A stretch of 64,000 nucleotides of DNA from Rhynchobatus australiae (taxonomy: Eukaryota): contig JAUZTB010000107.1 of assembly GCA_034780895.1 (NCBI GenBank), positions 67,806,960-67,870,959 on the forward strand. Direction: 5' to 3'. The notes below the pieces were generated by a model. That model saw only the letters and a list, made by a program, of their open reading frames with translations. It made no database searches and was not told the DNA's origin. Shown here one piece after another: positions 1,530 to 59,500 of this stretch (position 1 is its first letter; each line of letters starts with the position of its first letter). The position numbers and the translations under genes are program-made.

Positions 1530-2440
1530 TCTTCTTCTTAGGCAGTTGCTATAGGACAAGGGTGATTTGCTTCCATTCCATGTCTGTGGGCCCCAAAGTG
1601 GCCGAGAATCATATGTAAAGGAGCCACATACTCTGCCATAGATGAACAGATGGTCCTGGCAAGGCAGATAGGCGGGTAGTTTGGGACAGTTTGCACTCCT
1701 TGCACTTGACCTTCATGCGCTCCCATTGCAGAGATGGAAAGTGCTCAGTGTCTCTCTGAATGCCTCTCCATTTTGAGTGGTCAGGGGCCAGAAATTTCAA
1801 TGAGTCGGTAAGGATGCTACATTTTCTCAAGGACACTTTGAGAATGTCCATGAATCATGTCCCTGGCCTCTTGGATATATCATCCCATGGTGGCACATAG
1901 GGTGGAGGAGATTTGTTTCAGGAGTAGCCTCAATGCTGGACCCATTGGTCTGGGAGAAGATGCTGAAATTGGTTGACCAATCCTACCAATTAATTCAAAG
2001 GACTTTGGGAATACAGCATTAATGGTACTTATCCAATGAGTTCAGGTACCCACTGTAGGTATTCCAAAAGTCCAAATTGCCCAGAAGAGCAGGGAATCGC
2101 TGCTGTTCAACAGACCATGAGTTTGGTACCAGGTTTAAGGTTTTGGTCTTTGAACACCCTCCTAATTAGTCGGCTGAAGGTTGTACTGACTCATTGGAGG
2201 AGGTAGCGGATTCTGCCAATCAATATCTGTCTTAGCTGAGATCAATGTTTTCGAGCTTTCCTCCTGGACTTTTATTGTCAGGGAGTGTGTTCCGCAGTGA
2301 GGCAGATTTGTTGAGGACATTTACCTTCTGGATATTTAATGCAATGTCTAATCTTTTGCATGCTTCATTGAAAGAGTCAAGAAAAATTTGGAGCTCAGTG
2401 CCTGAGTACACACATACACATGCACCATTAGCTGTAATTC
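1530..2440 (-). mobile_element. Decayed RTE-clade LINE, 3' part
   Basis: Minus-strand remnants resemble the RTE ORF C-terminus (DILKVSLRKCSI...LAPDHSKWR; RVFKDQNLKPGTKLMV) and a degenerate YADD region near 2400-2440. It ends in a (AAG)n-like tail at ~1530. Many stops and frameshifts; boundaries approximate. Confidence 0.75.
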
Positions 2441-3577
2441 AATAAGACCAAGTGATCTTGCTTATAGAATCGAAATGACAAAGCTTGAAGAGGTTCCTAC
2501 TCATCCTGTATATTAACTCCACTCCATCCAGAACATTGTAGTGAGAAAGATGAAGAAGTTCATTGAAGATATGACAAAGCCTTGCTTAATCTCTATTTGC
2601 ACAGGGTTGGATCATAGTGAATCCAATGGTTAGGATCACAGCTAGGTTAATTTTAATTAACATAGCTTCCATAGTTATTAGAATTTTCACAATTCTCCCT
2701 GCAAAGAAATGCTCCCCAGCATTACTCCTAAATGCCATTGCACTAATTTTAATTTATGTCTCCACTGCATTTCCTTTATGAAGTCTTTGTATCATTTTAT
2801 ACTGCTGAAAAAGATCACCACTTTATCCACATATTCACAGGAAAAAGAGACAAAGTAATGCAATCTGACCTCATAATTTGTTCTTCTATTGTTCTATTGG
2901 AACAATGCCAGGTCTCATCCCAAGGTAAATATATCATTCCTAAGGTGTGATGTCCAGAGTTGAATTTAATATCCTAAAAGTGGTCTTTCATATAACTAAT
3001 GCAAAACATTACTCTTGAAGTACCTAACATTCTATTAGTTTTTTCACTTTTTTATGTCTGCTAATTTGTTATGATCTCTAATGATTTAGCTGCAATATTA
3101 ATCATTCCAAGCATTACTTTGGTCCAATTTCCCATTTTCTTCTGCCCATTTCTGATCCCTGAATTCTTGCTGGGATACGTTTACACTGTCATCAATGGTT
3201 GCCTGCTGTNNNNNNNNNNNNNNNNNNNNNNNNNNNNNNNNNNNNNNNNNNNNNNNNNNNNNNNNNNNNNNNNNNNNNNNNNNNNNNNNNNNNNNNNNNN
3301 NNNNNNNNNNNNNNNNNNNNNNNNNNNNNNNNNNNNNNNNNNNNNNNNNNNNNNNNNNNNNNNNNNNNNNNNNNNNNNNNNNNNNNNNNNNNNNNNNNNN
3401 NNNNNNNNNNNNNNNNNNNNNNNNNNNNNNNNNNNNNNNNNNNNNNNNNNNNNNNNNNNNNNNNNNNNNNNNNNNNNNNNNNNNNNNNNNNNNNNNNNNN
3501 NNNNNNNNNNNNTAAGTTTGTAATCTAAATTCACCTCAATTAGGAGTAGAGTCGGAGAGAGAGGGGGATGAATGGCT

Positions 3578-3651
3578 TGTTTATCAAAGGCCTATTGTCT
3601 AGGGATGTTTCCCACGCTCCAGCTGATGCAATTGAGTCGCGTGTCCAGATG
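3578..3651. promoter_or_regulatory. Candidate enhancer: dense cluster of Fox/TCF/Sox/CSL/E-box/Hes motifs
   Basis: TGTTTAT 3578, ATCAAAG 3583, TATTGT 3593, TTTCCCACG 3608 (CSL/RBPJ, - strand), CAGCTG 3620, CGCGTG 3638 (class C Hes site), CAGATG 3646, all within 75 bp. Function is inferred only. Confidence 0.45.
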
Positions 3652-4439
3652 GTTCAACGGTACTTAAAAACATCAAATAGAAGAGCCAGACAAAGTTTGT
3701 CAACCAAGTAGCCTAGCGTAATATTTAACCATGTGAATTTCAATTAGTTTCTGTTAATTTTTAATAAGTATAAAATTCTTCCTAATGGACAATGATGCTG
3801 AGTTAAAACAAACATATCTCTTCTGCTCAAGATTTACAGGTTATAGGTTTTCTTTGACATGTTGTGAAGCTGACTAGTACTTTAACAGAACAACTTTTTG
3901 CTGGACATGGAAAAATGGCTGGGTTTTCTCCTTAATTCTTAATAAGCTTGGGGAATTCCTATAAACACTGTTGATCATCTTTACATTAATAATGTTACTC
4001 GTGACATCCAAATCTGTTTATTTTGAAGTTACTTTGGAATTCAAAATGATGTGTCACAAATCGAGAGATTCATTGGTGTAGCACCAAAGCCTCGAATATG
4101 GCAAGTAAGAAGAATGTGTTCACAACCCAAGAGTATATTGACAATGTTGGCACACGTTTCATAAAATAAAGATTAGGGTATTTATTTATGCTAATAAGTC
4201 CTGATGGTCCCTTCAAACTTTTAGGAAGCAGTGACTTCTTACAATTTAATTGAATTGGAATCAAGAAGTGGGAGTGCTCCTTCTGACCTCAAATGAAATT
4301 AATACAAGCTGTTGCCCGCCAACAATCTCCAGTGACCCCACCAGCCCATTGACCCTTGCCTCTGCTCTCCCTGATCCTGACCACTGCTTTATCCTCACAA
4401 ATCACCCTCCATACCCCTATCAACTTTCCTCTGACTTCT

Positions 4440-5240
4440 TCATCTTATTAGGCAGTCCCTTAGGATGAAGAATGACTTGCTTCCATTCCAATTCTGTAGG
4501 TTCTGAGGTTACTGGTGAGGTTAATGTGGCAACCACAGATTCTTCCACAGATGAGACAGAAGATAGGTGAATAGTTTGTCATAAGATTGTTCTTTCTGAT
4601 GTTTACGCAGGATTTCTGTGTGGTCCCGATTCATGGACTTGAGGTTAATCAATAACTTATCAAATGCTCCTTCTCTACTTTTAGTGGTCATGGGCCATGG
4701 ATTCCCAAGAGTCATGGGGATTTTGCATTTTTCAAAAAGGTTTTGAACATATCAGTAAATCTTTTGCTCTAACTGCCTGGTAATCTCTTCTCATGACAGA
4801 GCTCAGAATAGAATGTCTGTCTTGGGAGTCTGGTGTTGGATATTTCATTTAAATGATGTGGTTCACCCAATGGAACTAAACGAATGTAAGTAGAGTGGGG
4901 GCAGTAGCCTGGCAAAAGTACATTAATGTTGATGTTGATTCACTTAGCCTTACAGAACATTTGGAGAGTTTGTGGGGAAAGTGTTTTTCTAGTACCTTTC
5001 AAGTGCCTTGAGGTGCCTGCTGTAGGTAGTCCAGATCTCAGAAACATATAAGAGGACAAGGATCACTACTGCCCGATAGACCGAATTTTGTGCCGGGTCT
5101 GAGGTCTTGATCTTCAAGCATCCTTTTCATCAATCGATCAGTCAAATGTTGTGCTGGAAGTGTCATGGTTCTGAGTTCTGGCCCTCAATTTGGCTCCTTT
5201 AATGCCTCGTTGTCCAGCACATGGATTCCATGCTGGACTG
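4440..5240 (-). mobile_element. Decayed RTE-clade LINE, 3' part (same family as 1530-2440)
   Basis: Shares the terminus TTAGGCAGT...TGACTTGCTTCCATTCCA with the copy at 1538. The minus strand reads as RMLEDQDLRPGTK...YRAVVILVLLYVSEIWTTYSRHLKALE. Confidence 0.75.
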
Positions 5241-5399
5241 ANNNNNNNNNNNNNNNNNNNNNNNNNNNNNNNNNNNNNNNNNNNNNNNNNNNNNNNNNNN
5301 NNNNNNNNNNNNNNNNNNNNNNNNNNNNNNNNNNNNNNNNNTCCCGTGAACATTTATTGTCAGAGAGCAGTACTGCATACTTCTGCATATTGATGATAA

Positions 5400-6110
5400 A
5401 GTTTGGGTAGAGGCCTTATAGGTTGAGTGGTTTCCATTGGTCTGGTCCATTTCCTCCATTCCACAGAAACTCCTCAAGTGTGACTGTACTTGACTCTATT
5501 CCACTCCAAACACTCACTGTCACCTCAAACCAACAACAAGTTAGAAATCTGTTGCCGACATCAATATGCCAACTGAGAAATACAAAAACCTCAGGAACAG
5601 ATGGTATCCCTGCATCCATGTTCTAAACCTTAGCAGCAAAGAACTTCAGTCACAAATTCACCACTGTAGTTCCTATGATTGGGAAGAGAAAGGCATGCCA
5701 CGGGACCTCGGAGATGCTGTATGCCTATTTTCAAGAAAAGAGACAACTCCACTTGTGGTAACTACAGGTGGGTCTCTTTGCTTCTGCCATGGGGAAAGAC
5801 ATCAGTAGAGTTCTCCTCAGCGAATGTCTCTTGGTGGCCAATGAACTGCTCTCTGAATCCTAGTGTGGGTACTGTTCATCTAGCAGCACTTTGGACATGA
5901 TCTTCATGACATGAAAACTACATACTGCAGCATCAACCATGATATGTGACTTTTTATTGACCTCTGTCAATCAAGAAGAACTGTGAAGTACCCTTCTCAA
6001 AATTAACTCTGCAGTAATTTCTCTACATTATGCTTGCTATCTGATGGCATGCAAGCCGTAACCTTAATCAACAGACCCAGTCTCAATACAAACTGGTCTC
6101 AAGCAACAGA
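5400..6110 (+). mobile_element. RTE-clade LINE reverse transcriptase N-terminal fragment
   Basis: Frameshifted peptides WEEKGMPRDLGDAV / IFKKRDNSTCGNYRWVSLL and ...IQTGLKQ match non-LTR RT motifs (KKGDxxxCxNYRxISLL, TGVKQG). Confidence 0.75.
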
Positions 6111-9100
6111 GGTGAAAGGAAGCATGCTGATAAGAAAGTGGCCAGTGCAATCAGTACAAATGGGTTAACTCAGCAATATTAGCAGTAAGATTGTAATGGT
6201 AAGAAATTTAACTGCTTTCANNNNNNNNNNNNNNNNNNNNNNNNNNNNNNNNNNNNNNNNNNNNNNNNNNNNNNNNNNNNNNNNNNNNNNNNNNNNNNNN
6301 NNNNNNNNNNNNNNNNNNNNNNNNNNNNNNNNNNNNNNNNNNNNNNNNNNNNNNNNNNNNNNNNNNNNNNNNNNNNNNNNNNNNNNNNNNNNNNNNNNNN
6401 NNNNNNNNNNNNNNNNNNNNNNNNNNNNNNATAGTGTACAGTTGACTGTGAAAACACATTGGTGAACAACAAACATGAATCTTTTTGGGTAGAGTGTTTG
6501 CAGCAACATACTGGATAGTTTACATTGTGATGTAATCATGGCATACTGGTGATAAACTCACACACACAATAAAACACTGTAATGAAATGGCATAATTTGA
6601 TGGAGCCCCACTGTGGGGTGTTACTGACTGATACGATCAGGTTATGTAGTGTAATTCACCACTTGGCAGTTTCACAATCTAGATGTGAGGAAATGCTAAG
6701 GGCAAGTTTGATGTTTCCAGTGGGAAAGTAAAGAAGTCTGTGAGTTCACTGCAGTGAGCAAGACAGACATAATGGTGGTAAAGCTTATAAATGCCACAAA
6801 TCAGATACACTAAATGGATTTATGGCAATAATTCAAACTTGAGGTTTCCAAGTATGGTTTGTTGCAGTTTATGTCATACTTAATTGAAGTATTGTCCCTT
6901 TATTTTTTATAAAAATGCAAGAAACATTATCTTGTGAACAGAACTGAAAAAGTGTTGATGCTGCTCTGTTATACAAATCATTATACAAACTCAAAACTGT
7001 TTACACAAATCTCTTAGTATTAAGCTTTCATTTAATTTCAGAAGTTTTAAATGTGAAGCAATATTTAAATTATAATTCTATGGCTATGATTCAAATCCAA
7101 AAGGTAACCATTGCATTTTTTGTTTACATGAGATTATTTTGTACAGCCCCCGGGGATACTATACTGCATGTGTTGCACTGGTCAACAGCTTATACTGACT
7201 CCAATTTCACCACAACTCTTGCTCAACCTAACTCCAAGGATAACCAAGCTACACAGAGTTCCACCCACCAGCACTGAACTTGAAGAAGTTTGTCTGCTAG
7301 TGTTTAAATACCAGGTGCTTTTAGAAATGTTCTCAGATGGTTTGGGAACAGTTAGCACAGGTTTGTAAAGGAGTAGACCACACAGGTGTTAAATTTCCAC
7401 CTGAAGATCAGTTAATATCACTTAGCTGAATGTACCTTCAGTAATTTCAAACTGAAACTGCTTCACATGGATGAAGACTACATGATGAAACCAGCAGATT
7501 AAACAACATCATTTCCGCAGGGATTCCCCACTGGAACATCAACAAGCTCACCCTCTCCCCACCCTGGGTGATGGTCTAATGGCTAAAAATAGCTGTCAAT
7601 GTCACTCCAAGATTTCCTCTGATGTTACATTGGAGATTGGAAGAATCCCATGAGCACAATACTTTTGTATAATATCCACCTGTGTGGGGATTTCCTAGAA
7701 TTGTCATATCAATGTCTTGATGTGTAGAGTTGTTATATGTAACAACTAGTATTTTAAGAAATATAATTTGTCAAATGAATTAGATCTTATTTTGGTTATT
7801 AAAATTTAATGTGAGCATATGAATTAATTAACATCAGGTTCACAAAGTAATCTGAAATTAAAAACATCTGTGTAAAATTGCAGGTTTGAAATCACTCCCT
7901 ATCATTAACATAATATATTCTGTATAACTTTGTTAATTTTATACAACATTTAAGATTGTGTTTTAATTGTAGACACATATATACATATGTTTGTAGCTTT
8001 TCCACACTGACTAAGATCACTGTCTGTTCCAATTAGAATGAAAAATTGTAGTTATATAATCTAAAATGATGTTGGGGGTGGATACCTGTTTGAAACTTTA
8101 TCGTTTAAGTTTCTGTACAAAAATGCCGTAAAGAATAATTATGAAAATGCAAACAAAATCATAATTTTACAATCCAGCCATTGTAATCAGATGTAAACAT
8201 TTGTTCACTTCCACCTTCATTCCATTTGTTTCTGTCTGCTGCTATATTTTGCACCAGCTGATTGTGAGAGATGAGTTTGATTAAACTGCCAGAGCCCTGG
8301 GAGTTAACTTGCAGCAGACATATATAAAACAGGATAAGNNNNNNNNNNNNNNNNNNNNNNNNNNNNNNNNNNNNNNNNNNNNNNNNNNNNNNNNNNNNNN
8401 NNNNNNNNNNNNNNNNNNNNNNNNNNNNNNNNNNNNNNGACTCTGCAGACTCGTAAATAAAAGGTTTTCTTGTTTCCACGACTTTGTCTCTGGCATGGTG
8501 ATTGTGAGCACGGATTATATCTCACATGATGCAGAAATATCTTTCCAACTTCTTGTAAACTTGGTGATGAGAATTTCGCATTGTCGAAAATCTGAAAATT
8601 TTCATTCCTATTGAAATCAAATTTATTTTAAATTCAAGCATTCACAGCTACAGAATTAAGTCACTTTAATGACGCAGGAAACGCGGCAGGGAATTCATGC
8701 ACAGCAGGCTGTCAAAAAGGCCTCTTTGCTGAAGCAAGATAATCTGTAAATTGATGTTTATTGTGGAATAGATATTGACCTTGACACCAAGAATAACCCC
8801 TGTCTTCCTCAAAACATTGCATGGAATAGTGGGATCGCTTATCCTCTGCTAGGAAGGAAACGTGACCTCAGTTTGGAATCTCATCCAACATGTCTTTGTT
8901 ATTTGCGTTTACATATTTAATGTGTTTTTGAACCCAAAAAAAGTATTACAAATTAATTTAAGGGAGGGGGCGAATGAAATCTCTGGGCACGTGCGGAACA
9001 GCCCTGGTCAGGTGGAACGAACGAATCCATCATAAAGGCGACAGAGTTCTCTCTCTAATCGTGATGTTCAGTCTTGTGCCGGCCGTTATGGTAACTAAAT

Positions 9101-9499
9101 GAGTTCCAATTCATTGAAAATGAGCGTTAACCCGTTTGGAAAGGACCTGCAGTGTACCCTTCAGTTTCCGGGCGTGGGAAGGATTTTGAACAATGCCAGG
9201 TCATGAGATGTGGCACAACACAATCCCACCGCCTAAATAGGGTTTTGGTGCACGTTCCCTGCACTGGCTTTTAAAGCACATCGCGCATTCTATGTGGGAA
9301 TGGCTGAAATCTCCTGCGACAGATGGGAAGGGGGCGGATTGCTTCAAGGCACTGGGTCAGAATGAACCCAAGGTATCCTGACCACGTTGAATTCAGAGGA
9401 CATTTGATCTCTTTTTAGCAGATGCATTAAATGCGTTGGAGCTTCTGAATAACAAAATCAACATATGGCCAGAGACGTCTTAAATTGTGAATCTGGCCA

Positions 9500-9775
9500 T
9501 TTAAGAGGGAAATCAGGAGGCATTCGTACATCCAAATAACAATAATCCTACTTGTGTTACAAGGGCTGGTATAAAACTGAAGTTCCCTCTTTCCTCAAAA
9601 GGATATAAATGCTAAGATAGTTGGAGTTTTCAAGAATATTATTTGTCGGATAAGTGTGTCAGGGGACATGGGGCTAGGGTGTGCAATATGAGTTGAGGTA
9701 CAAATCAGTCATGAGGTAATTGACAGGGGCGCAGGCTCGATGGGCCGAACGGACCACTCCTGTCGCCCTTGTCCC
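9500..9775 (+). mobile_element. Decayed CR1 LINE 3' end
   Basis: AAGAGGGAAATCAGGAGG...GATAGTTGGAGTTTTCAAG...GGCTCGATGGGCCGAACGGACCACTCCTG resembles the typical chondrichthyan CR1 3' terminus. Boundaries approximate. Confidence 0.55.
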
Positions 9776-10593
9776 CTTGTCCCACCTCAGTCGATACTGG
9801 ACAAAATGATGGGTGACTTCACTTTTTTCTTGAAGAAAACAGTGACCCTAGACCTAAGAGGGAGGTATTGCTGATATCCCGTGAATTAAGAAACAAAAAT
9901 CATCGAATAAAACATTTAGAATTAAATAAGTGGATTATATGAGTAAATTCAAAAAGTCGTTGTCTGGACCTGGAGTGGTGCATATGTGTCCCGGTTGTCA
10001 TGGTGATTAAACTGATGTCACGCCATCTGAAAGGATTCACCTTATGGTCTACATCCACTCTCTGCACAGCTCTGCCTCCGCAGTTAATCTGGAAGGTTGT
10101 TAGGAAATATCGTGAAAGGGGGTTATTGTTCGGAAGAATTTCCCACGTTCGTTTCTGCGCCTGGCAGTCGCGTGTCTTAAGGCAAACAGAGCCGCTGCGG
10201 TGAATTCGTAAAAAAAAGAGAAACGTTGCCGTGAATGAATGGACATCTGCTTCAGGATCTTGTGTTTTTTTTAAAAAAGAGTTTGCGTTTTAAAAACATA
10301 GGCGAGAGAGATTTACAGTCCTGTGAATCATCAGGCCAACATTCTGTTCTTAGGAGCTGCACCTGTTAAAGGAGACCACGAATATGGAAATGGCATTTAA
10401 TTCTAGATCACGTTGCAGATTTGTGATTTAAATCTAAATATTGGTTTGATATTCATAAAGTTGAAAATATTTTCGAATAACGTAAAGATTTGAAGATGCG
10501 TCGTGCATAGTTCAGTTCTTACACAGTTACTCCTTATAATCGAGTTACATGAGTTAAGAAAGGACAAGTCCTAACCTCCCCTCCCCCTCTCCA

Positions 10594-10594
<1 letters not shown>

Positions 10595-10627
<33 letters not shown>
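10595..10627. repeat. (CA)n microsatellite, ~16 units
   Basis: Read directly from the sequence. Confidence 0.95.
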
Positions 10628-10630
<3 letters not shown>

Positions 10631-11374
10631 CAAAATGTTGCGTTAATGATCTGATGGAAATAGAAAAAATATAGAGTGCGCTGTATTGGATCATTTTCTG
10701 TATTTGCATAAAACAAAGGCGATTGTTGGATTAACTGCAAATTGGATCCTGTCACAAGAAATATATCACAGATCTATTTTGTGCCTTTTAACACAAGGAT
10801 GCAGATAAAAATACAAGGTGAACTATGCGGAATATGGCTGTGTGTGATTTTATCAATCGCCAATTAAAACAGGTTATCATTATTTTACACTGCTTTTTTG
10901 CGGGAGCTTGCTGTGCGTAAATAGACTGCCGCCTTTCTTACATTTCAACATTTAACANNNNNNNNNNNNNNNNNCTTCATGGGTGTAAAGCGCTTTGTGA
11001 TATCCCGAGGTCGTTAAAGGTGCTACGTTTTATCAGCGTTCTGCGACAACAGGGCGGCGGTTATTTAATATACGGTATAATTATACTTGTTATTACAAAT
11101 CCCTTTCAAGTGGAGCGTCGTTTTCCCACAAGGATACAAAACCTAACAGTTCTTGTCAATGAAAAATTGTATTTTAAAATAAAAACATAAATTACAGGAT
11201 ATAATTTTTTAAATTGAGAGTCACGCATTGTTTTGTTTCCATCTCACTTCGGCCCAGTTTAAAGAGCTTGCCCTCAGAATCGCAGAACTACCAATGACAG
11301 AGTTCCGAGGGAACAAGTCCATAGGGCGCGACCTCTTGGTACAGAACACCATGCAAAACCAGTTCCTAACGTAA

Positions 11375-11551
11375 ACGCAACGCACACAAAATGCTGGAGG
11401 AACTCAGCGGGTCAGGCAGCATCTATAGAGGGAAATAAACCATCGACGTTTCGGTTCGAGGCCCTTTATCAGGTGTTGATGACTCGACCCGCTGAGTGGC
11501 CTCCGGCATTTTGCTGCTCCAGATTCCAGCATCTGCAGAATCTGTGTCTCC
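11375..11551. mobile_element. Palindromic Penelope-derived non-autonomous element
   Basis: AAAATGCTGGAGGAACTCAGCGGGTC ... GACCCGCTGAGTGGCCTCCGGCATTTT inverted arms. It carries a degenerate hammerhead-like core on the - strand (CTGATAA...GAAACGTC). Same family as 36776-37009. Confidence 0.65.
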
Positions 11552-12491
11552 CTAACGTAAACGGGCGTCAACTGCAGCACAATAAAAGACACACCTTGGC
11601 CGGAGCGCTAGCTGTTTGTCAATACGATGCATTCTACACAAAAAGTGAGAAAATTAACTGGATGCAAAATGTGGAAAAGACTAATTTCTGGCGATAAATT
11701 GTTAAATCAAAAATTGAAAAAGCAGTATTTTCACATCAGCACTGATACCCAGCTGAAGTGTACCCTGTACCTGAGTCCATCTCATTCGCTCGTTCAATGA
11801 GTAATTAACGATAATTAGATGCGGCACTCAGTATCCTTCAAAATNNNNNNNNNNNNNNNNNNNNNNNNNNNNNNNNNNNNNNNNNNNNNNNNNNNNNNNN
11901 NNNNNNNNNNNNNNNNNNNNNNNNNNNNNNNNNNNNNNNNNNNNNNNNNNNNNNNNNNNNNNNNNNNNNNNNNNNNNNNNNNNNNNNNNNNNNNNNNNNN
12001 NNNNNNNNNNNNNGATCTCTCGTTGTTAAAAGGAAATTCATAAATTATTTCAAAAGCATGATACAGTAACGTTCAAGAAAATGCAAATAATACGGCAGTG
12101 TATTCCGTTTCATAATGAACAGAGAGAACCCTTGACAATGTAACGAGGAAAATGATCCAAGCTTCAAAAAGAACTCAACCCAACAGCTGTGAATGGGACT
12201 GGGCGGATTCATTTCGTGTTTTTGCGGTTGCAAAATTGACACCATTCATCGCAGTGAAAGGGGACGGAGTTCCCAGGTGTAACTGGAGTAACACCATGTC
12301 TTTTCTCACCACTAACCAAATCCATGGGAATGTAGAGCGGGGCGGTTTGAAGAGCCATGCGAACTGCTTGGAGTGCTGAGGGAAAGATAAGATTCGGCTG
12401 GAAGAGATTCCTGGCCCCGGCCATCTGTCGCTCTTTGGGCGGTCAGCCTGGCCATTGAGTGGGAGCACTGAGCTGTCACTGTTGATTGATG

Positions 12492-12583
12492 GACACTCGC
12501 CTCTGGCCGCGACCCCAAGTGTGGGAAAGTGGCTGAGCGCAGGAACTCACGCATTCACATGCTAATTCGTGGATATAAATAGA
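12492..12583 (+). promoter_or_regulatory. Proximal promoter of the her8.2-like gene (CSL site + TATA box)
   Basis: TGTGGGAA at 12520-12527 and TATAAATAGA at 12574-12583, about 100 bp upstream of the ATG at 12673, in a CpG-rich context. Confidence 0.7.
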
Positions 12584-12672
12584 AGTTCGGCAGAGAGCAA
12601 GAAGACATCACAGCCTCAGTCTGAAACCAGCGAGCATCTAGCAGCAATTCTCTCTTCCAGATCGGTGGAAAC

Positions 12673-13869
12673 ATGACTGCCACAACCTTCAGCAACAACG
12701 TGGAAAAACTCTCAAGTGCCAAAGAGGAGCGCAAGGTAAGAAAAATGATGCTGTCAGCGATGTTGGGTTTTGGAAGCGTGCAAATAAAACTTAACTTAAG
12801 TTACCACCGTGGCACGTGCTTACCCTGTGCACTTCTGTCCTGCAGTTAAGAAAACCTCTTATCGAAAGAAAACGGCGAGAGCGGATCAACAACTGCCTCG
12901 ACCAACTGAAAGAAACAGTGGTCAGCGCCTTTCGCCTCGATGTAAGTGGAGTGCCCGCGCTCTGCCCTTGCGTTTTGCACTAAATACATGCACTCTGCTG
13001 ATTTTTACTGAAACTGATTGGGAGTCGAGCATGACAACAGTTTTTCATTATTTTCTAGCAATCAAAACTGGAAAAAGCAGATATCCTCGAGATGACAGTG
13101 AAACATCTTCAGAATGTTCAAAACAGCAGGATGATGGGTGAGTTTCAGTTCAGTGATATTAGGAGCAATAACGTATAACAACGATACCAAGTCAATTTTA
13201 TGAATCTATGTCAAACTACAATGTATTCGATTTAATCTAAGCAACCTTGAGGTAATTGTTAGCTTTTAAAAACTTTATTTTAATGCCTGAAATTCGATTG
13301 CTTGTAAACACGCACGATTATAATTAGGAAATTGAAAGAAGCAATTCATTTTCTTCTAATATATGCCTATTCCTTGTTTTGTTTCAGCTGATACTAAAAT
13401 TGGACTCGAGGCTCAGCAGAGATATAGTGCTGGCTACATCCAGTGTATGCATGAAGTGCACAACCTACTATTAACATGTGATTGGATGGACAAAACTGTA
13501 GGAGCGCGCTTGTTGAACCACTTACTCAAGTCGCTGCCTCGATCCAGCGAAGATTCGCGCCAGCCCAGCCTGAAGACACCAGCCGTTAACCCCCAAACCT
13601 CAAAGAGTCAGCTCCCTTCGGTGACCCAGGGGAATATTCCTGCAGTTCACGCCGCTTCCTCGGGAGCTGTGGATCCATCTCCTCGCTCATCTCCTGACCG
13701 ACACTGCAATCCTGGGTTTAAAGTGTGCGGGAAAAATGTCGATCCATTTCCAAATCCTCCTGCAAACATGCACCTACCCGCCAGCTCTCCCACCCAACAG
13801 CTCCAAGAAGACTTGGCCTTAATGCATAATTCGCCTGTTGCATCGTCAGGCGTGTGGAGACCCTGGTGA
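12673..13869 (+). CDS. her8.2: Hes6-subfamily bHLH-Orange-WRPW repressor, her8.2/Hes6-2-like, 239 aa; join(12673..12735,12846..12941,13059..13137,13388..13869)
   Basis: Four exons with GT-AG junctions give one open frame of 720 nt: MTATTFSNNVEKLSSAKEERK/LRKPLIERKRRERINNCLDQLKETVVSAFRLD/QSKLEKADILEMTVKHLQNVQNSRMM/ADTKIGLEAQQRYSAGYIQCMHEVHNLLL...RLLNHLLKSLP...VWRPW. It has the basic-region Pro, the Orange domain and WRPW. AATAAA at 14134. Family is certain; the exact orthologue name (her8.2 vs her8a) is from recalled similarity. Confidence 0.93.
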
Positions 13870-24070: not shown

Positions 24071-25139
24071 ATGGCTCCAGCCTGCAAACCAGGATCTGTC
24101 AGGGATGAAGGAGACTTTTATGCAGTGAAAGAAGATCGGAAGGTAAGATCGCACATTTAAAAAGGGCAACTCCGAGTCCGGCGGCTGTGCATGAAAAATG
24201 TCATTCTAACTCCGGGCGTTTCTTTATGCGGTTGCAGACTCGCAAGCCACTGATCGAGAAGAAGAGGCGAGCCCGCATTAACGAAAGCTTGCAAGAACTA
24301 AGGCTGATCTTGGCGGATACGGAAGTGAGTTTTAAGTTGTACTGATGGGAAAAAAAATCCTTCAGATTTCAGTTATGATTTTTAAAAAAGAAATTTAAAA
24401 TGTGCTAAATATTCTCAGCTGCAGTCGAAAATGGAGAACGCGGAGGTGCTGGAGATGACGGTGAAACGNNNNNNNAACCTACTTTGCAACAGAAATGTTG
24501 GTGAGTAGTTTATAAGGCAGAAATAAAAGATTGGAAGTTAATAGGATTTGGAAATCCATTGCAAATATCATCGCATTGCATAGCCTTTGTAGAAAGCGAG
24601 CTGTAAATTTTAATGGCAATTGTTGCGATAGGAAGCTATTTCTTTTTAAAAAGGAAAAATTCTCCCTTCTCTCCCTGTTGGCAGAAAAGGAGAGGTTTAA
24701 CGAGGAAGCGAATGAGAGGTTTGCAGCTGGCTACATCCAGTGCATGCACGAGGTCCACACTTTCGTTTCAAACTGTCCGGGGATCGACTCTGGAGTAGCC
24801 GCCGATTTACTGAATCATCTACTGGAGTCTATGCCACTGAGCGAAGATCACTTTCAGGATTTACTGGGTGAATTAATGGCCGAAACGAGCCCCAGTATGT
24901 GGCCTGGGCCCGACGATGTGTGCCTTGTATTGGCGTCCCCCGCAGGTAGAGACCAGCTCAGCTCCTCTGCACTGTCTCCTGTATCCACTGCCTCCACCGA
25001 TGATGTGTACTCCGATCTCGATGACGCGGATTCATCTACTGCAGGGCAGAGCCCCTTGTTGCAAGAGAAAGTAGATAACTGTAGGACAGAAAACACCTCC
25101 CCTGCAATGTACTCAAAGTCGGTCTGGAGGCCGTGGTAA
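24071..25139 (+). CDS. hes6: Transcription cofactor HES-6, 231 aa; join(24071..24142,24238..24324,24419..24500,24685..25139)
   Basis: GT-AG exons give 696 nt in frame; the 7 N at 24469-24475 preserve the frame: MAPACKPGSVRDEGDFYAVKEDRK/TRKPLIEKKRRARINESLQELRLILADTE/LQSKMENAEVLEMTVKR..NLLCNRNV/EKERFNEEANERFAAGYIQCMHEVHTFVS...LLNHLLESMPL...DDVYSDLDD...VWRPW. The short HLH loop, KMENAEVLE, RFAAGYIQCMHEVHTFVS and the acidic SDLD motif are diagnostic of Hes6. AATAAA at 25510 and 25870. Confidence 0.95.
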
Positions 25140-50558: not shown

Positions 50559-53500
50559 TCAACTTGTAGAGTTTCCAAATGCATTTGTTGCTACTTCCAG
50601 GTTAGAGGCTGCAATCTCTGAAGGCTTTTGCTCTTCATTTATAAAGTTCGAGATCTGAAAGCCAACATCGTGGCCTGGCTCCAGCAGTCCATTGAACTCC
50701 AGATTATGGATTTCCACATCAAATGTTGGTGAAATGTTCTGTGCTGCATTTTTCTCACAGAAAATTTTATCCTAATTTAAGAAGAAGGGTTACAATCCAA
50801 CATAAATTCAAATGCAAATTTCACACCTTTTCCATCTTCACACCATCAAGAGCACAAGCAATGCCATTTAAAATATCAGTTCTGTTTTTATTTTGTCATT
50901 GTACACTTTTAATAGTTATAGGGAACACAATCCCCAAAATTAGTTCATACAAAACAAGTCTGAATGCTATCAGGTTTATTGCAGTTGCAGAACAAACTTG
51001 TGGCTTTTTTTTTTAAATGGATCAATTAAAATTGACATGACATGTTTTTTTCTCCCCATTCATAATGGCAGAAGTTGCACACTGNNNNNNNNNNNNNNNN
51101 NNNNNNNNNNNNNNNNNNNNNNNNNNNNNNNNNNNNNNNNNNNNNNNNNNNNNNNNNNNNNNNNNNNNNNNNNNNNNNNNNNNNTTCATACTGGCAGAAG
51201 TTGCACACTGGTTTGGTTCAAATTAAGTTTTGATATTGCAGCTGAAGCTTTCAAATTGTGGGGAAAATTATTCCTTCACAGCTTTCACATAAGCAGATCC
51301 AAACACCTTTGTCAATTTTCTATGATTTAGTACCAAATAAGAAATGTTGGAAACACCCAGCATTTAGGCAGCATCAATGGAGAGAGCAAAACAGAAGCAA
51401 TATTTTAGGCTACCAACTGTTCATCAGACCTTTTAGGAACAGATTTAATAGTCCTTGAAATAAGTGCAGAACAAGGGAATACATGCAAGGGGAGGGGAGA
51501 ACCTTAGGGCAGGCAGTAGGGGTGAAATATGTGATCGTGGAGCCGGCAGGATTGTTAAAGCCCCAACATGTTCCAGTCTGGTGGAAACAACATTGACCTA
51601 AAGTACAAACACTTATTTATCTCTCCACAAACCCTTGGACTGGGGGTTTCTAAAATTTTCTCCTTTCATTCAGATGATTTCTAGCATCTACAGTGCTCTG
51701 CTTTTCTGAAAGTTTGTGAATATGCAAATAAGATCACTTTTCATGCTTTGCATATCGTCTAAAGAATGGATTTCTACAAATTGCGTCATTTACTTCATTT
51801 GCAGTTTATTTGCGAGGGATAAGGAAAAGAACAGATGATTTTTAATCACACTATACTTTAGTATGGGAGAATGCCCTGGGGTCAGAGTTTGTGCCGCTAT
51901 GAAAAAACTGTAGAACCAGCAGGTTCCATTTCTGAAATTTAATCCCCAGGTTTGAGTAATGATGAAATATTGTATTAAAACTTGGCACAATAATAAAACT
52001 GAGAGATTAAATTTTCCATCAGGCCTTTTNNNNNNNNNNNNNNNNNNNNNNNNNNNNNNNNNNNNNNNNNNNNNNNNNNNNNNNNNNNNNNNNNNNNNNN
52101 NNNNNNNNNNNNNNNNNNNNNNNNNNNNNTTTTACAGTTGATATTCACTCTAGATATTTTGTTTGCTGCTTAAGGTGGTGTAAACATGAAACAAATCTGG
52201 AGAACTGCAGCAGTGCCTAAATGTAAAAATTAGCATTAAAATTAACCCCAATGTTGGCAATCTAGCACAAGATTGATAAAGGCTGGTTGATCATGGAGCC
52301 ATTAAAATTCCCATAGCGCAGTCAAAGATGCCCAAGAAATTGGATTGAGGGTATGCTATTGGGACATTGAATGCAGGTCACTAAATGGATAAGGATTTAA
52401 CCATGAAAATTTAAATAGATTTCTACTGCCAAAACAAATTAAGGAAACTTGAAACAAAACTTACCATGATATCTATGGTCTTTGGCACTGCATTTGTTTT
52501 AAACCAGGGAAAGACTTCAGCAAGTTCCTTTTTTTGCTTCTCAGTGAACTTAGGTTGGTTTCTCTGCATCAGTTTCAGCTTCTCTCTATCCTCCTTCAGA
52601 ACTGTTTCAATGTCCCTGAATTGTAACAACAATAGGCATGCTGATTACTCTGCACTTTGGGAGAAACTTGAGTAACAAGGTATTAAAAATAAATTCCATC
52701 AGCATAATTGTACTCGACTTATGAATCATAGAAGTCTCTTAAGGTAGCTGGTATCAATGAATGAAAAAAAAATCACTCAACACCAACATTTCACTGTGCA
52801 ATCCATGTTGGCGATTAATCTTCAGTTTATTCATTTGCCAATTTTAACATTTGTGTGACCTATTTGAAACAATCAGTTAATGCTCCAGATAAACTAAAAA
52901 CAATTGCAGGTGAACATATTAATTGTTCAAAATCTGGAAGCTCACATATGCACTCGAATAGGATGCTTTGGTGTTGTAATTCCACAATGATTTCCTAAAT
53001 TTTTGAAGCATTCAGTGAGAGCAATAATCTTTTATAAATTTTCCACTTACAGTATCACATCGTTGAGGTTGGACTGAACTATCTGAATAACTTTAATCCT
53101 TGCAATGAAGAGTCTACCAGGAGTGGAATAAATGTGTGCAGGGAATTACCACAGTACCAGAAACTTGATTGGGGGTGTTTTTGAATATGTCCCAGCAATT
53201 ACAGATAGATATATATAGAATCTGAGACAAAGATGATAATCATCTGTTGGTTGTAACGTAATAAAGAACTTAAAACATGCAAGCTAAAAACAAAATAAAG
53301 TTCATCATCCNNNNNNNNNNNNNNNNNNNNNNNNNNNNNNNNNNNNNNNNNNNNNNNNNNNNNNNNNNNNNNNNNNNNNNNNNNNNNNNNNNNNNNNNNN
53401 NNNNNNNNNNGAAATCTGAAATTTAAAAAAAAAATCAACCTGAAATGCTAATACTGTTTCTCTCTTCACAGATGCTGCCTGACTTGCTGGGGATTTCCAA

Positions 53501-56500
53501 CACCTACTGTTCTATTAAAAATTGTAAGGGTTTGGATAAAACTTAATTCAATGCAGATTAATTCTGCTGTAGTACCTGTTATATTTATCAAATTGTTTAA
53601 AAAGAAAAACTTCTATTCTGCAAAGGAACAAAATAAGTCCCAAGATACTTCACAAGCAAACAGAAACAGACACAAAGCCACAGAGAATGAAAGATTAGGC
53701 CCAGTGTCCAGAAGCTTGATTGAGGCGATACAATTCAAGTGTATTTGTAAACTCAAAAGGGAAGTTTCAGAAAAACAATCCAGGGCACAGGGGGGGTCTT
53801 GGCAGCTGAAAACATGGCCACAACCAGTGTTGCAATTGTATGAAAAGCAATAACAGAGATAGGGAACGCCAGAGGCACAGAGGTATTTGAAAACATGCAT
53901 GAAGTCTTTAAAGTGGTGATGTTGTTTAACTGGAAGCCAGTTTAGGTCATTGAGTAGAGGGTGAAGGATGATTGGAAGTAGATGCTAGCTACGAGGTGGC
54001 ACCGGAGTTCTGGGAGATCTGTTTAGAAAGAGTCAAGAGAGAAATAACAACATTTAAAAGACATTTGGATAAGCACATGGATAGGAAAGGTTCAGAAAGA
54101 TATGGGCCAAATGCAGGCAAATGGAACTTGCTTAGATAGGCATCATGGTCAGGATGGACAAGTTGGGTCAAAGGGCCTGTTTCCATACTGTATTACTCCA
54201 TAACTAAGAAGGCTGCCAAGATGACGTAGGAAAAGTCATTCGGAGGCTACCACAACATGGAAGAGAGTTTCAGTAACAGGTGAACTGTACTTAGAGCAGG
54301 GTCAGGTGATGTTAAAGAGCTGGAAACTAGGTAGTCTTACTGAAGGCACAGATATGTGATCCAAGGATCAAGTTCCAGATGAAGTTTACCTTTCNNNNNN
54401 NNNNNNNTCCATTTCACAGACTAAAGATTGTGGTAGCAACTGTAATGGTTCATGTTGTCAGAAAAGTAGAGCAGAAATCAGAAACGCAGTTACAGTACAC
54501 TTAAGTCACTATGAAATAGAAAGTAGGAAATAATTCTCTCTAGGTTCAGGGGGTTATCAATTATTTAATGTTATGCTAGAGCTTTGTATTATCTGAAAAT
54601 CAAAGATTAGATTACAACCTTGCAATTAGATTATTACCTTGTAGATACAGTTAGACATCTTTTATTATTCAGACAAAACTGCACTCAGGGATCAATTAAA
54701 TTATTTAATCAGTGCCAGGAATAGAAATCTCGTAAGCATCCCTAACAGATTAGTATTACTGACGCAAACCTTGAACCTTAAGAGAATTAGTTGATGTCAC
54801 CCAGGGCAAAGACTGAAGCACCACAAATGTGGGCAGCACCTGGAGTGCAACGAAATAATATTTTTTAAATAGTTCAAGGATACATCCACCAGTTGCCATT
54901 GGGTGAACATGGACTTTAATGTGGACATATTGGATGAAAACTAGNNNNNNNNNNNNNNNNNNNNNNNNNNNNNNNNNNNNNNNNNNNNNNNNNNNNNNNN
55001 NNNNNNNNNNNNNNNNNNNNNNNNNNNNNNNNNNNNNNNNNNNNCCCAATCATTTGGCTTGCGACTCACTGGGCCCTGTTTCCCCACACTCCATTTATAC
55101 TCACTGGCCTTTTATCCCCCCCATTCTCCCTTTATACTCCCTGGGTCCTGTTTCCTACACTGTCTTTACATTCACCAGTTTCCCACACTCCCTTTATGCT
55201 CACGGTCCTATTTCCCATGCTCCTTTTAAAAATTTACTAGGTTTACTGGAAAACATATTATGCCACCAAGTAACACCTTAAAAAAAGTGAACTAAAAGCA
55301 TGTTAATATAATAATTTGCAATGCTATCCAATAGTCTGGAAAATCTACCCATCCAGCACCACCCAAGTCCTAACTGTGCCATAATAGTGGAGTTTTACTC
55401 CATTAGGAGCACTGCTCAGCAAACATGAAACTGAGCTTATACTGTAACAAAGTTCTTTCTGACCTATGCAATTCCAATTCTCATACCCTCAAAATAAAAA
55501 TGATCCTTGCTGATGTTTCTCCCAGCAATAATCTAAATCTGTTGTTCTTCTTCCCCTTCTGTAGGATGATGTTGATCTTCAAATTCCCACCCAACAGGAA
55601 AATTGGCCTTGCTGATTGCCTGCCTGCTTGCCTGTTATTGTATAGGCCTTACTTCTGTTTCTGTAAAGCCAGAAATGAAAAGCAACCAACCATGTGAACC
55701 AAGCATAGACCTAGGCAAAGAGTTAAAAATTTTCCCCGTTTTGTGAGAGCTGTTTGATCTTATCTAACCTCCTGACCTCTGCACATAACTAGAAGAAGAA
55801 AAATGAGGATGGCTGTTAAGTCCAGCTGGTTCAGATTCGCTTGTACAGGTTACACAGACAGTCTTTTTCTCCCCCCACAAGACTCGGGAGAGAGGTAGGG
55901 AAAAATTGTAAACTTTCAAAATAATCAAAATCCTAACTGGCTATAAAGAAGAGGGATCTATTCATCCTGCACTCGTCAATCTCAACAATTTTATGCTTAA
56001 AAATTACCAACTGAAGGCAGCTTTGTGGCAAAAAAAAGCATTTCCCTTCAAGTGCTTTACAATATAATAAACAACCACCATATTTATGCAGTGGGTTAAA
56101 AGAGTAGAATTTCAGATTATCAGGGCAGTAAATTTCAACACAAAACATCATTATTGAGGCAAGCCCCAAAGTTTAAGAATGGTGGATACAGAAAATATGG
56201 ATTAATGCAATGATAATTTTAAGTGAAAACTAAATGAACTCAATAGTTAGCACAGTTGCTGGCTGCATCAGGCATAGTGAAATAGAATGGAGAGCTTCTA
56301 AAGCTCCACTCAACAAAATTTCCACTTGAACTTACCTCACTGGTAGTTGATAGGTCATCATTGTTCTCTCATCTGCATTTGCCATTTCAAGCCAGATAGG
56401 GTCTTGGCGCACATACTTATTGCTCTGGCCTATTTTCTCATTCTCAGAGTCACTGCTTCCAAAATATTTGCTGGTGTTTAAGTAGCTACTCCCTAATAAT

Positions 56501-59500
56501 GATATAAAAAAAAGAAAACATAATCAGCCAGTGGCTTGACGAAGTAACAAAGAAATGACAAGAAAACAGAATCAACAAAGACTACACTTTTATTCATTCA
56601 CAGGATCTGGCTTTGCTGGCAAGACCAGCATTTATTGCCCAACCCTAATTGACCTTGAAAAGGAGGCAGTGGGCCACCTTCTAGACCTGCTGCTGTCCTT
56701 TTGGTGAAAGTACTTTTATGGTGTTGTTGTGGTTGGAGATCCATTCTGCTAATCAGGTTTACTCCTTCCAGAGGAATGGATGAGCTGACCTAAACTGGAG
56801 TTTATTCCTGTTCATCACCCAATATCAAGTTATAAAGCTTCTTTGGACAATTCAAAGCAAAAGAAGCCCACCAGTTACCTTGCACGAGCTCCAAAGCAAA
56901 GAAACCCATAGGCTCTATTGATTTTTTTTTGATGAGGGACAGTTAGTTCTTACTATGCCATGGGTTTGGTCAGATAAATAGACATTGTAAGGGGTGGGTG
57001 TTGGACAACAAAGATCTCAAAATGCTGATGTTCTGATGAAAGGTCACTAATTCCACTNNNNNNNNNNNNNNNNNNNNNNNNNNNNNNNNNNNNNNNNNNN
57101 NNNNNNNNNNNNNNNNNNNNNNNNNNNNNNNNNNNNNNNNNNNNNNNNNNNNNNNNNATTGCCTGAGTTGCTGAGTATTTAAGGCGTTCAAGAATTCCCA
57201 AACATCACCTCTTGTACTGCTGTAAATATGCCTCTGTTGAACTGCCCTTTGTGTCTTCACAGTGCCTGTAGTTACACCCAAACACAATTATTTAACTGCT
57301 TGAATCCCATCAGACTCTGATACTATTTGGATGTTGGATGCATCAACGACTAAAAAAGCAGTCTAAAATGCCAATTTCCCCACAACAATCAAGAAAAAAC
57401 ACTCTCTTCCCTTGCTTATATCCCCTCAAATGAACACAATAGTGAGCTACCATCTTTGCTTGCATTAACTTGATTTGTAGGGTGACAACTGGTGGGGAAA
57501 ATGTGCAATGGAAGGACATGCTTCTAGTTTGTGGCCATTTTCTAACCTTTGATAAAGCAAAATTGTACATCTCTGTGAAATGTTACTCGCATTAAGTCAC
57601 CTGTGTCAGTTCCTGACATTCCACACCCGTTGGACGGAGAGCCTGAAGAGCCAGAGGCCGATGATCCCACGCTCCCCGAGCCTGCAGATCTGGTGTCTGA
57701 CTGTAGTAACAGGTCCAGTATGTCAGTAGAAGTGGAGTGAGCATCACTGTTCTGGGCTTCAGCAGGGGATTCGGCCTTTAGAAAAACAAACACAAGTGTT
57801 TAGACCACAGGCAGGTAATATTGTATTAATTAAAAATTCAAACTGCTGCACAAACAGAAATTTTAAAAAATACAGCAGATGTTTTGAACATGGAATAGAA
57901 CACCATGTTTACTGAGCAATAATTAACAGGAAGTCTTGGGTACAATCAGGAGAATGTGGGCTCATTATAGACAGTCCAAGAGATGATATGATGGACATCA
58001 AGCTAATGGCAAATGTGTTAAATTACTGCTTGGCATCTTTTTACAGTAAGGCACCAAAGGTGTAACCTACTACATTTAATATAATTCAAACACAGTACAG
58101 GTGGTTGCATCTCCAAATCTACTTAAGGGTGTAAAAGAAATAGGTGAGGAAAACAGATGTAATACTGAATTATCCAACTTTAGGGAACTCACTCTTTCTT
58201 CCTTAGAACTAGTTATTTTTTCCTGTCATCATTTTTGTTCAGTTTTTCCTATTCTATTCATATGGCTTGTTCTGCTAGCCATGTTCCACAGCCTAGCTAT
58301 GAACAACACATTACACACACAAAGACATAATATACTTGTAACTACCCACATTAGCCCATTTGGTCTCACCCTATCAGACATATTCCCTTTGTTCTACCCA
58401 TAATTTCACTACCTTCTTTGCTACTGGCTCTCTTTCCCAGTTCTGATGAAGGGTCCCAGATTGGAAATGTTAACTGTTTCTCTTGCCACTGATGCTGACT
58501 CACTTGCTGAGTGTTTTCAGAATTTGAGTTTTTAATAATATAGGAGAACTGTGGCAGTGTTAGTCTCAGGATTTCAACATCTGGAATTGTACCTATGCAT
58601 TGGAAACTTANNNNNNNNNNNNNNNNNNNNNNNNNNNNNNNNNNNNNNNNNNNNNNNNNNNNNNNNNNNNNNNNNNNNNNNNNNNNNNNNNNNNNNNNNN
58701 NNNNNNNNNNNNNNNNNNNNNNNNNNNNNNNNNNNNNNNNNNNNNNNNNNNNNNNNNNNNNNNNNNNNNNNNNNNNNNNNNCAGTTGCAGTGAAATTACT
58801 GAAATCCATTAGCTGAGAGAGATGTCCAGTGCTTTGATCAATAGAAACCTAACAAAAGAGTTGGCACAACTTTGTGAAAGGCAGTTTACGCCCAGACGAA
58901 ATTTCAGATGAATTTGCGACATGGCAGACACAATGGTTGTCCGTATGGACTTAAAAATGTTATTGATAAGGTTCTGCACAAGAGAGTATAAAAGAGAAAC
59001 ACACTACAAATTGGAGATGGGTTTCTGACATGTGATGGAAGGTAGGAGTTAGCTTTGTGGGCACATCCTTTCAAGGGCCTTTAGGAGAAAAGTGTAGGTA
59101 GAATTTCCAGTGCAGTGCTGCACAGGTAGGGGTACTGTCTTTTGGATGACATTTAAACTCCATTGGACAACAAAGATCTCAAAATGCTGATATTCGGATG
59201 AAAAGTCACCAATGTGAAATGTTAGTTCTACTTTTCTCTTCATAGATATTGCTGAGTATTTCTAGCATTTCCTCTATTTCAGATTTCCAGCATCTGCAGT
59301 TTTTTTTGTTCAATATTGCTTTCCGCCCCCAGAATTACAGTACATTTATTTTCGATGAACTACAGAATCTTACTAAACACTTTTGCTAACACTGCACTTT
59401 CAATGCCATTTTTGTATTTAATCCCCGCACTGTAGAAGTGTGCTCTCCAATTTAGGTTTTATAAACTATTCTAGCTACAGGAATAAATCAACGTACTCAT

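Follow-up and report, generated by a model that had tools for sequence, protein, structure and literature searches.

Why should two stretches of DNA upstream of one gene agree in three binding-site motifs and in the distances between them, and in almost nothing else? The question is raised by a 64,000-nucleotide stretch of the genome of Rhynchobatus australiae (the window), which holds the Hes-family gene hes6.2/her8 and, before it, two copies of a module made of a Sox-type site, a CSL site and a Hes class C-type site. The gene hes6.2/her8a is an odd Notch target, since it needs SoxB factors, needs Notch later and gives a weak or negative answer to excess Notch; the modules are 53-base candidates that carry all three inputs for this regulation. 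The arrangement is shared by both copies, confined to this locus and conserved in near relatives, and the pair represents locus-specific, conserved candidate enhancer modules, a variant of the enhancers that combine CSL, a local activator and a repressor. We lean towards the view that the copies are anciently duplicated enhancers in which selection has kept motifs and spacing, with predicted activation by SoxB1 and Notch and predicted damping by Hes/Hey proteins.

Two copies of a three-site module

3593..3645, + strand: module copy 1 (Sox-type site 3593-3598, CSL site 3608-3616, Hes class C-type 11-mer 3635-3645)
10124..10176, + strand: module copy 2 (Sox-type site 10124-10129, CSL site 10139-10147, Hes class C-type 11-mer 10166-10176)

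Both copies read TATTGT-N9-TTTCCCACG-N18-AGTCGCGTGTC in the same orientation, as a preliminary description of this DNA had claimed. Compared on one diagonal, the motif blocks agree at 6/6, 9/9 and 11/11 positions, that is at all 26 motif bases, against 5 of 27 in the spacers (1/9 and 4/18). Flank identity amounts to 22/80 and 48/155, and a gapped alignment of the flanks and the long spacer revealed no residual homology outside the motifs, as it scored no better than shuffles. The AAAGG that had been remarked before both copies is indeed present upstream of each, at unequal offsets. The separation of 6.5 kb holds in the assembly but spans three runs of N between the copies; because of these runs, the present assembly is the sole basis for that distance and for linking copy 1 with the gene. 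Copy 2 lies within a CpG-rich domain (~8.5-16 kb). The spacer of copy 1 also contains TGATGCAAT at 3624-3632, absent from copy 2, which we take to match a C/EBP-ATF composite site.

The chance level was estimated by a blind search for any two-place multi-block match over bases 1-12672, with order-3 Markov simulations. When matched bases were counted, the observed level was reached in 45 of 2541 simulations (p ~0.02), so that by length alone the pair is moderately unusual. When matches were weighted by rarity, the copy pair was the top match of the region with 54.9 bits, a value reached in none of 1038 simulations (best simulated, 53.5).

The genome searched comprises 2.23 Gb. In it, TTTCCCACG-N18-AGTCGCGTGTC has two matches, both at the hes6.2 locus, and the 11-mer AGTCGCGTGTC occurs 47 times (the two module copies plus 45 others). 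The pattern TTCCCACR-N21-CGCGTG matched three times, one of them outside the locus (on contig C69), with two matches for its control, while a looser pattern modelled on the three local copies matched three times, always locally, with none for its control. The 250-base block around each copy matches only itself and is thus single-copy, as judged by a DNA word search, which can miss common words. The concern that the copies might belong to a dispersed repeat is answered by these results: the pair is unique to the locus and both blocks are single-copy.

The Sox-CSL part of the module is less exclusive. ATTGT-N8..12-TTCCCACG has 109 genome matches, three of them upstream of hes6.2 (the third at 9173-9195), and among the 100 listed the gaps 8, 9, 10, 11 and 12 occur 21, 20, 24, 22 and 13 times, a flat distribution in which 10 is not preferred. 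The idea of a rigid, general Sox-CSL-Hes enhancer grammar, put forward in the preliminary description, was rejected, since the Sox-CSL spacing is flat genome-wide and CSL plus 11-mer is restricted to this locus. The 20 stretches covering seven other Hes/Hey genes contain 50 CSL sites; ATTGT is absent from the 30 bases upstream of each of them, and none is accompanied by a class C site in the position seen in the module. No additional module copy was found in 30 kb further upstream. Two candidates elsewhere were set aside: the two Sox-CSL matches on C72 near 15.65 Mb, which come without a Hes site (a reading frame beside one of them is presumably glycolipid-transfer-like), and the pairs of an 11-mer and a Sox-CSL match ~10 kb apart on C1 and C71, where both 11-mers lie in repeat-like sequence.

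Conservation in relatives

3565..3679, unstranded: conserved block that encloses copy 1, with limits set from the data; holds ATCAAAG (3583), TGTTTAT (3578) and the E-boxes CAGCTG (3620) and CAGATG (3646)
10015..10186, unstranded: conserved block that encloses copy 2, with limits set from the data; within the CpG-rich domain

The relatives compared are six of 24 matching public runs, picked for distance, with ~90% overall identity. For copy 1 (runs X12, X16, X4 and X22, the stretch being covered by one contig in each) the listed changes fall at 3552, 3553, 3557, 3559, 3564, 3601, 3618 and 3668, none of them in a motif base in any of the four runs; two of those listed are spacer changes, in one run. 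Three indels were found, at 3557-3562, and none within the module in the four runs. These positions represent 10 of 27 differences, the other 17 being read, from an inferred rule of listing, as lying at most ~30 bases from the ends. Read in this way, the segment 3565-3679 showed 0/115 changes in run X12, against 11/76 outside it (Fisher 2e-5), and 3/115 in run X16, against 10/70 outside (Fisher 0.005); the two closer runs were uninformative on core versus outside change rates. Within this block we take ATCAAAG to be a TCF-type and TGTTTAT a Fox-type site, and CAGCTG and CAGATG to be E-boxes.

For copy 2 the runs X10, X12, X16 and X19, ~90% alike and effectively two lineages, each contain the block in one contig. 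Over the 94 bases 10093-10186 a single change is listed, at the spacer position 10150 and common to the four runs; the flanking bases have 13/143 and 14/143. No indel lies inside the module among the 12 of 18 indels listed. Both blocks, therefore, behave as conserved non-coding elements, with fewer changes than their flanks at ~90% overall identity. The expectation that motifs and spacing are kept in relatives is supported to the extent that no listed change touches a motif of either copy, which for copy 2 refers to 40 of 78 differences. A search for vertebrate DNA in metagenomes gave 24 matches, none resembling the gene or its upstream region.

The gene downstream of the modules

12673..13869, + strand: hes6.2/her8 coding region; four exons, 12673-12735, 12846-12941, 13059-13137 and 13388-13869; 239 amino acids, WRPW end
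24071..25139, + strand: hes6.1, tandem paralogue, the second Hes6-type gene after hes6.2
52465..57751, - strand: Period_C exons of a Period gene (synteny marker)

The gene was initially described as her8.2-like and, judged by synteny, loop length, a diagnostic lysine and its domains, it is the hes6.2/her8 orthologue. Marks of Hes6.2/her8 are a tandem of Hes6.2 and Hes6.1 near Period2, an intermediate loop and a retained lysine (PMC2996300, PMC3125270). The product is a 239-residue basic helix-loop-helix (bHLH)-Orange-WRPW protein, encoded in tandem with hes6.1 and near a Period gene. Its bHLH loop, counted by eye on the translations, is two residues longer than that of hes6.1 and three shorter than that of hes1, and it keeps the lysine (EKADIL) where hes6.1 has asparagine (ENAEVL). 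A Pfam search of two reading frames at 60-62.6 kb found no family.

The following reports on orthologues fit the predicted Sox/Notch/Hes logic. The zebrafish her8a gene depends on SoxB factors and responds to Notch (PMC3125270, PMC3082574, PMC10112928): a knock-down of five SoxB genes lowers its expression and the Notch intracellular domain (NICD) induces it (PMC3125270), while her8a and her8.2 vanish without Notch and rise only moderately with NICD (PMC10112928). The chick Hes6-2 gene was reported to be repressed by Notch (PMC3082574, citing Fior and Henrique). Marsupials and placentals have lost hes6.2/her8 (PMC3125270), so that the module was beyond the reach of any screen in these mammals.

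Candidate factors at the three sites

The names originally given to the sites agree with the consensus sequences in both copies, and the identities of the factors remain motif matches. The Sox consensus is an ATTGT core with an A/T flank; the sites read TATTGTC and TATTGTT. Since the window contains 236 instances of this core by itself, a single match is weak, and the putative Sox assignment relies on the common core and on zebrafish genetics. The CSL site CGTGGGAA of both copies matches the CSL/Su(H) consensus YGTGDGAA, as printed in PMC3390367. The class C site is CACGCG (PMC1950541), a core present in both distal copies and nowhere else in the window. Its surrounding 10-mer, GACACGCGAC, agrees at 8 of 10 positions with the Hes1 chromatin immunoprecipitation (ChIP) motif GGCACGCGCC (10.1101/336305). 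The exact 10-mer appears in 32 papers, and among the 20 of these listed by title no Hes or Notch enhancer is the subject. We take GGCACGCGAC to be the Hairy site of achaete, and the 11-mer presumably agrees less well with Pax, T-box, NKX and Smad/Schnurri sites.

C87:25243813 (11 bases): identical 11-mer in a Neurogenin gene, in a likely non-coding first exon ~75 bases after a TATA box

One of the 45 other copies of the 11-mer lies 621 bases from a bHLH match, in the leader of this Neurogenin gene (chance ~0.005), with GGCACACGAC and an N-box at most 70 bases away and GGCACGCG ~300 bases upstream. Because proneural genes are standard Hes targets (PMC2996300), this occurrence favours a Hes/Hey reading of the third site.

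Partial copies and the hes6.2 promoter

9173..9195, - strand: partial inverted copy; Sox-type CATTGT and CGTGGGAA, gap 9 versus 10, without a Hes site; chance ~0.06
12492..12528, - strand: partial inverted promoter copy; CSL site and a 9/11 variant of the 11-mer, spacer 17 (one base shorter); chance ~0.006
12520..12551, + strand: likely cryptic paired CSL site, TGTGGGAA-N16-AACTCACG, upstream of TATAAA at 12574

The inverted partial copy in the promoter had been noticed at the outset and was recovered with the same match and spacer; the one at 9173-9195 had been missed. The promoter has the order Hes-like site, 20 bases, CSL site, 16 bases, putative cryptic second CSL site, and the distal copies, read inverted, have Hes site, 21 bases, CSL site, 10 bases, Sox site. 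A paired CSL site is defined by a second, head-to-head CSL site across a spacer of 15-17 bases. The second site of the promoter, AACTCACG, matches at 6/8 with spacer 16, a level reached by 3.8% of background places; its last six bases are those found in the hes5-cluster modules described below, and among background places 0.16% match all six at a spacer of 15-17. The distal modules were rejected as paired CSL sites (SPS), as their best second sites reach 3/8 and 4/8, versus 8/8 at hes1 and hes4.

As further observations on this region, GGCCATTG occurs 62 bases upstream of the cryptic paired site, and an element resembling a short interspersed nuclear element (SINE) lies at 11375-11545, presumably akin to repeats of rays. 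Eight of the 12 CSL-consensus sites of the window, including all four CGTGGGAA, flank hes6.2 (3609-15376), and none of the 12 falls between 15.4 and 30 kb, around hes6.1. This absence agrees with the report that chick Hes6-1 is not a direct Notch target in the spinal cord (PMC2996300).

Other Hes loci of the genome

C57:5758267 (23 bases): hes5-like site; Sox-type ATTGT and CSL (TTTCCCACG / CGTGGGAAA), gap 10, orientation as in the modules
C57:5736118-5802802: hes5 cluster modules, five of ATTGG-N8/9-TGTGRGAA-N15-cryptic second site

A survey of 40 stretches at other Hes/Hey loci, among them hes5, hes2-like and hes7-like, yielded 89 CSL sites, one of which (hes5) has ATTGT within 30 bases. This site is located 1.2 kb upstream of a bHLH exon, and a CACGTG overlaps its CSL site. 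Since one match at gap 10 among 89 CSL sites has a chance of 0.14, the shared Sox-CSL spacing is suggestive only and we treat it as a lead.

In 135 kb (24 kb of it N) the patterns used matched only two hes5-like coding regions; the surplus modules could represent orphan promoters or else distal copies. GCYATTG stands 30-31 bases upstream in four of the five modules. Here motif spacing is fixed and spacers drift, from evident duplication, which is the same signature as that of the hes6.2 pair. At a hey1-like gene on C135 (1500-1700 of the stretch) the first bHLH exon appears twice, astride a run of N, probably as an assembly duplication.

Origin and possible function of the pair

According to the reading that we favour, a local duplication would have produced the pair. 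Its source may have been akin to the promoter, whose CSL-to-Hes-like geometry is the same within one base and inverted. A duplication is proposed because an independent origin of 26 identical bases at this locus only is hard to credit. Substitutions would then have erased the common spacers and flanks, while selection held the three sites and both spacer lengths. The spacer identity of 5/27 implies at least 1.5 substitutions per site, and if the copies had a common ancestor, both lengths were kept in 1-4% of neutral trials (a rough model with indel rates taken from the relatives); it is the rarity of this outcome at such spacer divergence that argues for selection on spacing. The preliminary description had offered a rigid grammar or duplicated shadow enhancers as alternatives; the two do not exclude each other, and the best fit is a duplication after which spacing came under selection.

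In neural progenitors, CSL/NICD at CGTGGGAA and SoxB1 at the site 10 bases away would co-activate the gene. Hes5, Hes1, Hey or Hes6.2 itself would bind GACACGCGAC, 21 bases on the other side of CSL, and recruit a co-repressor. Because Notch also induces these repressors, the predicted behaviour of the module is that of an incoherent feed-forward loop, with expression that depends on Notch but stays moderate or transient. A more specific proposal, which we consider unlikely, is a heterotypic Sox-CSL paired site, in which the Sox site, 10 bases from the high-affinity CSL site, occupies the place at which the other half of a CSL pair would start. Two or three such sites would be in use at hes6.2 and a single one at hes5; SoxB1 and the Notch transcription complex would bind there cooperatively at a fixed spacing, with the Hes site, at a fixed distance, as a brake. 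If true, such a cooperative site would be a direct DNA code for the reading of Notch by neural progenitors.

Several observations weigh against duplication with selected spacing and against the proposed inputs. The duplication itself is a reconstruction, as no homology remains outside the motifs. The block limits were set after viewing the data, which makes the Fisher values optimistic, and the figures for copy 2 leave room for motif changes in single runs. The relatives are close and represent few lineages (X12 and X19 have equal change counts); at this distance the spacers within each copy are about as conserved as the motifs, so that the earlier suggestion that only the functional bases survived is not supported as it stands, and the three core changes, all outside motifs, would fall there with a probability of 0.46. 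Copy 1 is not part of the CpG-rich domain, and the runs of N lie between it and the gene. Both partial copies are one base shorter in the gap, which indicates some slack in spacing, and the promoter variant has the core CACTCG, which breaks the class C core. TCGCGTG, at 3637 and 10168, fits the AhR:ARNT site (T/G)NGC plus GTG (PMC8431614), a fit in sequence only. In zebrafish, early her8a expression is Notch-independent, and Webb et al. saw no her8a cross-regulation in morphants of other Her factors (both PMC3125270).

How far do these data allow other explanations? The copies could be duplicated enhancers with the same three inputs arranged as a billboard, their spacing merely inherited and without importance. 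The flat Sox-CSL spacing and the shortened gaps of the partial copies would be expected in this case; to our knowledge, Hes/Groucho repression does not require exact spacing, which also counts for a billboard. Some Notch enhancers tolerate rearrangement as well (ASE5, PMC3390367). We nevertheless hold this explanation to be unlikely, since it must accept that both lengths survived a divergence of the spacers to chance level, the outcome of few neutral trials in our rough model, and that no indel entered either module in the relatives (with the limit given for copy 2). It is quite improbable that the copies arose independently, under a rigid three-factor complex that dictated sequence and spacing. 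Such a convergence would account for the lack of homology in flanks and spacers and for the hes5 gene with an equal Sox-CSL gap and orientation, but the full arrangement is found nowhere else in the genome, a Sox site accompanies a single one of the 89 CSL sites of other Hes/Hey loci, at an unremarkable chance level, and the identity between copies reaches bases beyond the motif cores.

The third motif, for its part, might be read by a different factor, either AhR:ARNT, an activator, or an unknown protein with the consensus GACACNCGNCT, and the logic of the module would then be one of three activators, or another. In addition to the AhR:ARNT fit (PMC8431614), this is favoured by the promoter variant, which keeps the flanks of the site and alters its class C core, and by related 10-mers with differing centre bases at the Neurogenin, hes1 and hes5 loci. 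The five such 10-mers outside hes6.2, however, are about as many as we estimate for chance, the promoter variant does not fit an AhR site, and both the identical 11-mer beside an N-box in the Neurogenin leader and the agreement with the Hes1 ChIP motif point to Hes; we regard another reader as improbable. A chance match, a repeat remnant or an assembly artefact is largely refuted and hardly credible at this stage. The unweighted blind test and a fragmented assembly with N runs between the copies leave it some room, whereas the weighted test, the single-copy blocks (within the limit of the word search), the presence and conservation of both blocks in relatives, each in one contig, and copies too different to be haplotigs speak against it. 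Duplication with selection on motifs and spacing thus remains the reading we favour. Copies that agree only in sites and spacing amount to a natural saturation mutagenesis, which points out the bases worth testing and makes the question of spacing testable.

Comparison with known systems

The preliminary description knew of no account of this architecture, and the literature searched, which left out most subscription papers, contained no published module or distal hes6.2/her8 enhancer. Rebeiz et al. (2012, cited in PMC4887206) reportedly described three motifs in a conserved architecture ahead of the Hes genes of deuterostomes, with a paired Su(H) site and a site for a Hes repressor; this work could bear on novelty. 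What is said of it resembles our case in the fixed combination of CSL and Hes sites upstream of a Hes gene; the hes6.2 promoter is similar, with a Hes-like site and then a putative cryptic paired site, whereas the distal modules have a single CSL site and a Sox-type site instead of the pair.

The zebrafish her8a gene is orthologous and receives SoxB and Su(H) input; its promoter was scanned over at most 1 kb, and a distal module or a class C site is not described in the passages concerned (PMC3125270, PMC3082574, PMC10112928). A Su(H) site lies ~200 bases before its start codon, and 153-145 bases before that of hes6.2. The "Su(H) plus local activator" codes of Notch enhancers (Liu and Posakony 2012, PMC3390367) resemble the modules in combining a CSL site with that of a tissue-specific activator, and the S+E pair of m-alpha is strictly conserved in sequence and spacing. 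Unlike the modules, these codes belong to Drosophila, use a proneural or POU activator rather than Sox, lack a Hes site at a fixed distance and do not form a duplicated pair at one gene.

In the SFZE syntax of brachyury enhancers, too, sites that include Su(H) follow an order and orientation particular to the gene, which persist although adjacent sequence diverges; this syntax recurs in two modules at zebrafish tbxtb, like the twin modules of hes6.2 (PMC12292651). It differs in its factors (Foxh1, Zic and Ets) and in that order and closeness, not base-exact spacing, are conserved; it has also been reporter-tested and shown across phyla. Finally, shadow enhancers born by duplication, signs of which were reported in 18.3% of fly and 33.9% of mouse shadow enhancer sets (PMC13345019), share with our pair the presence of two modules with common site content at one gene, while the hes6.2 copies differ from them in having only their sites and spacing in common.

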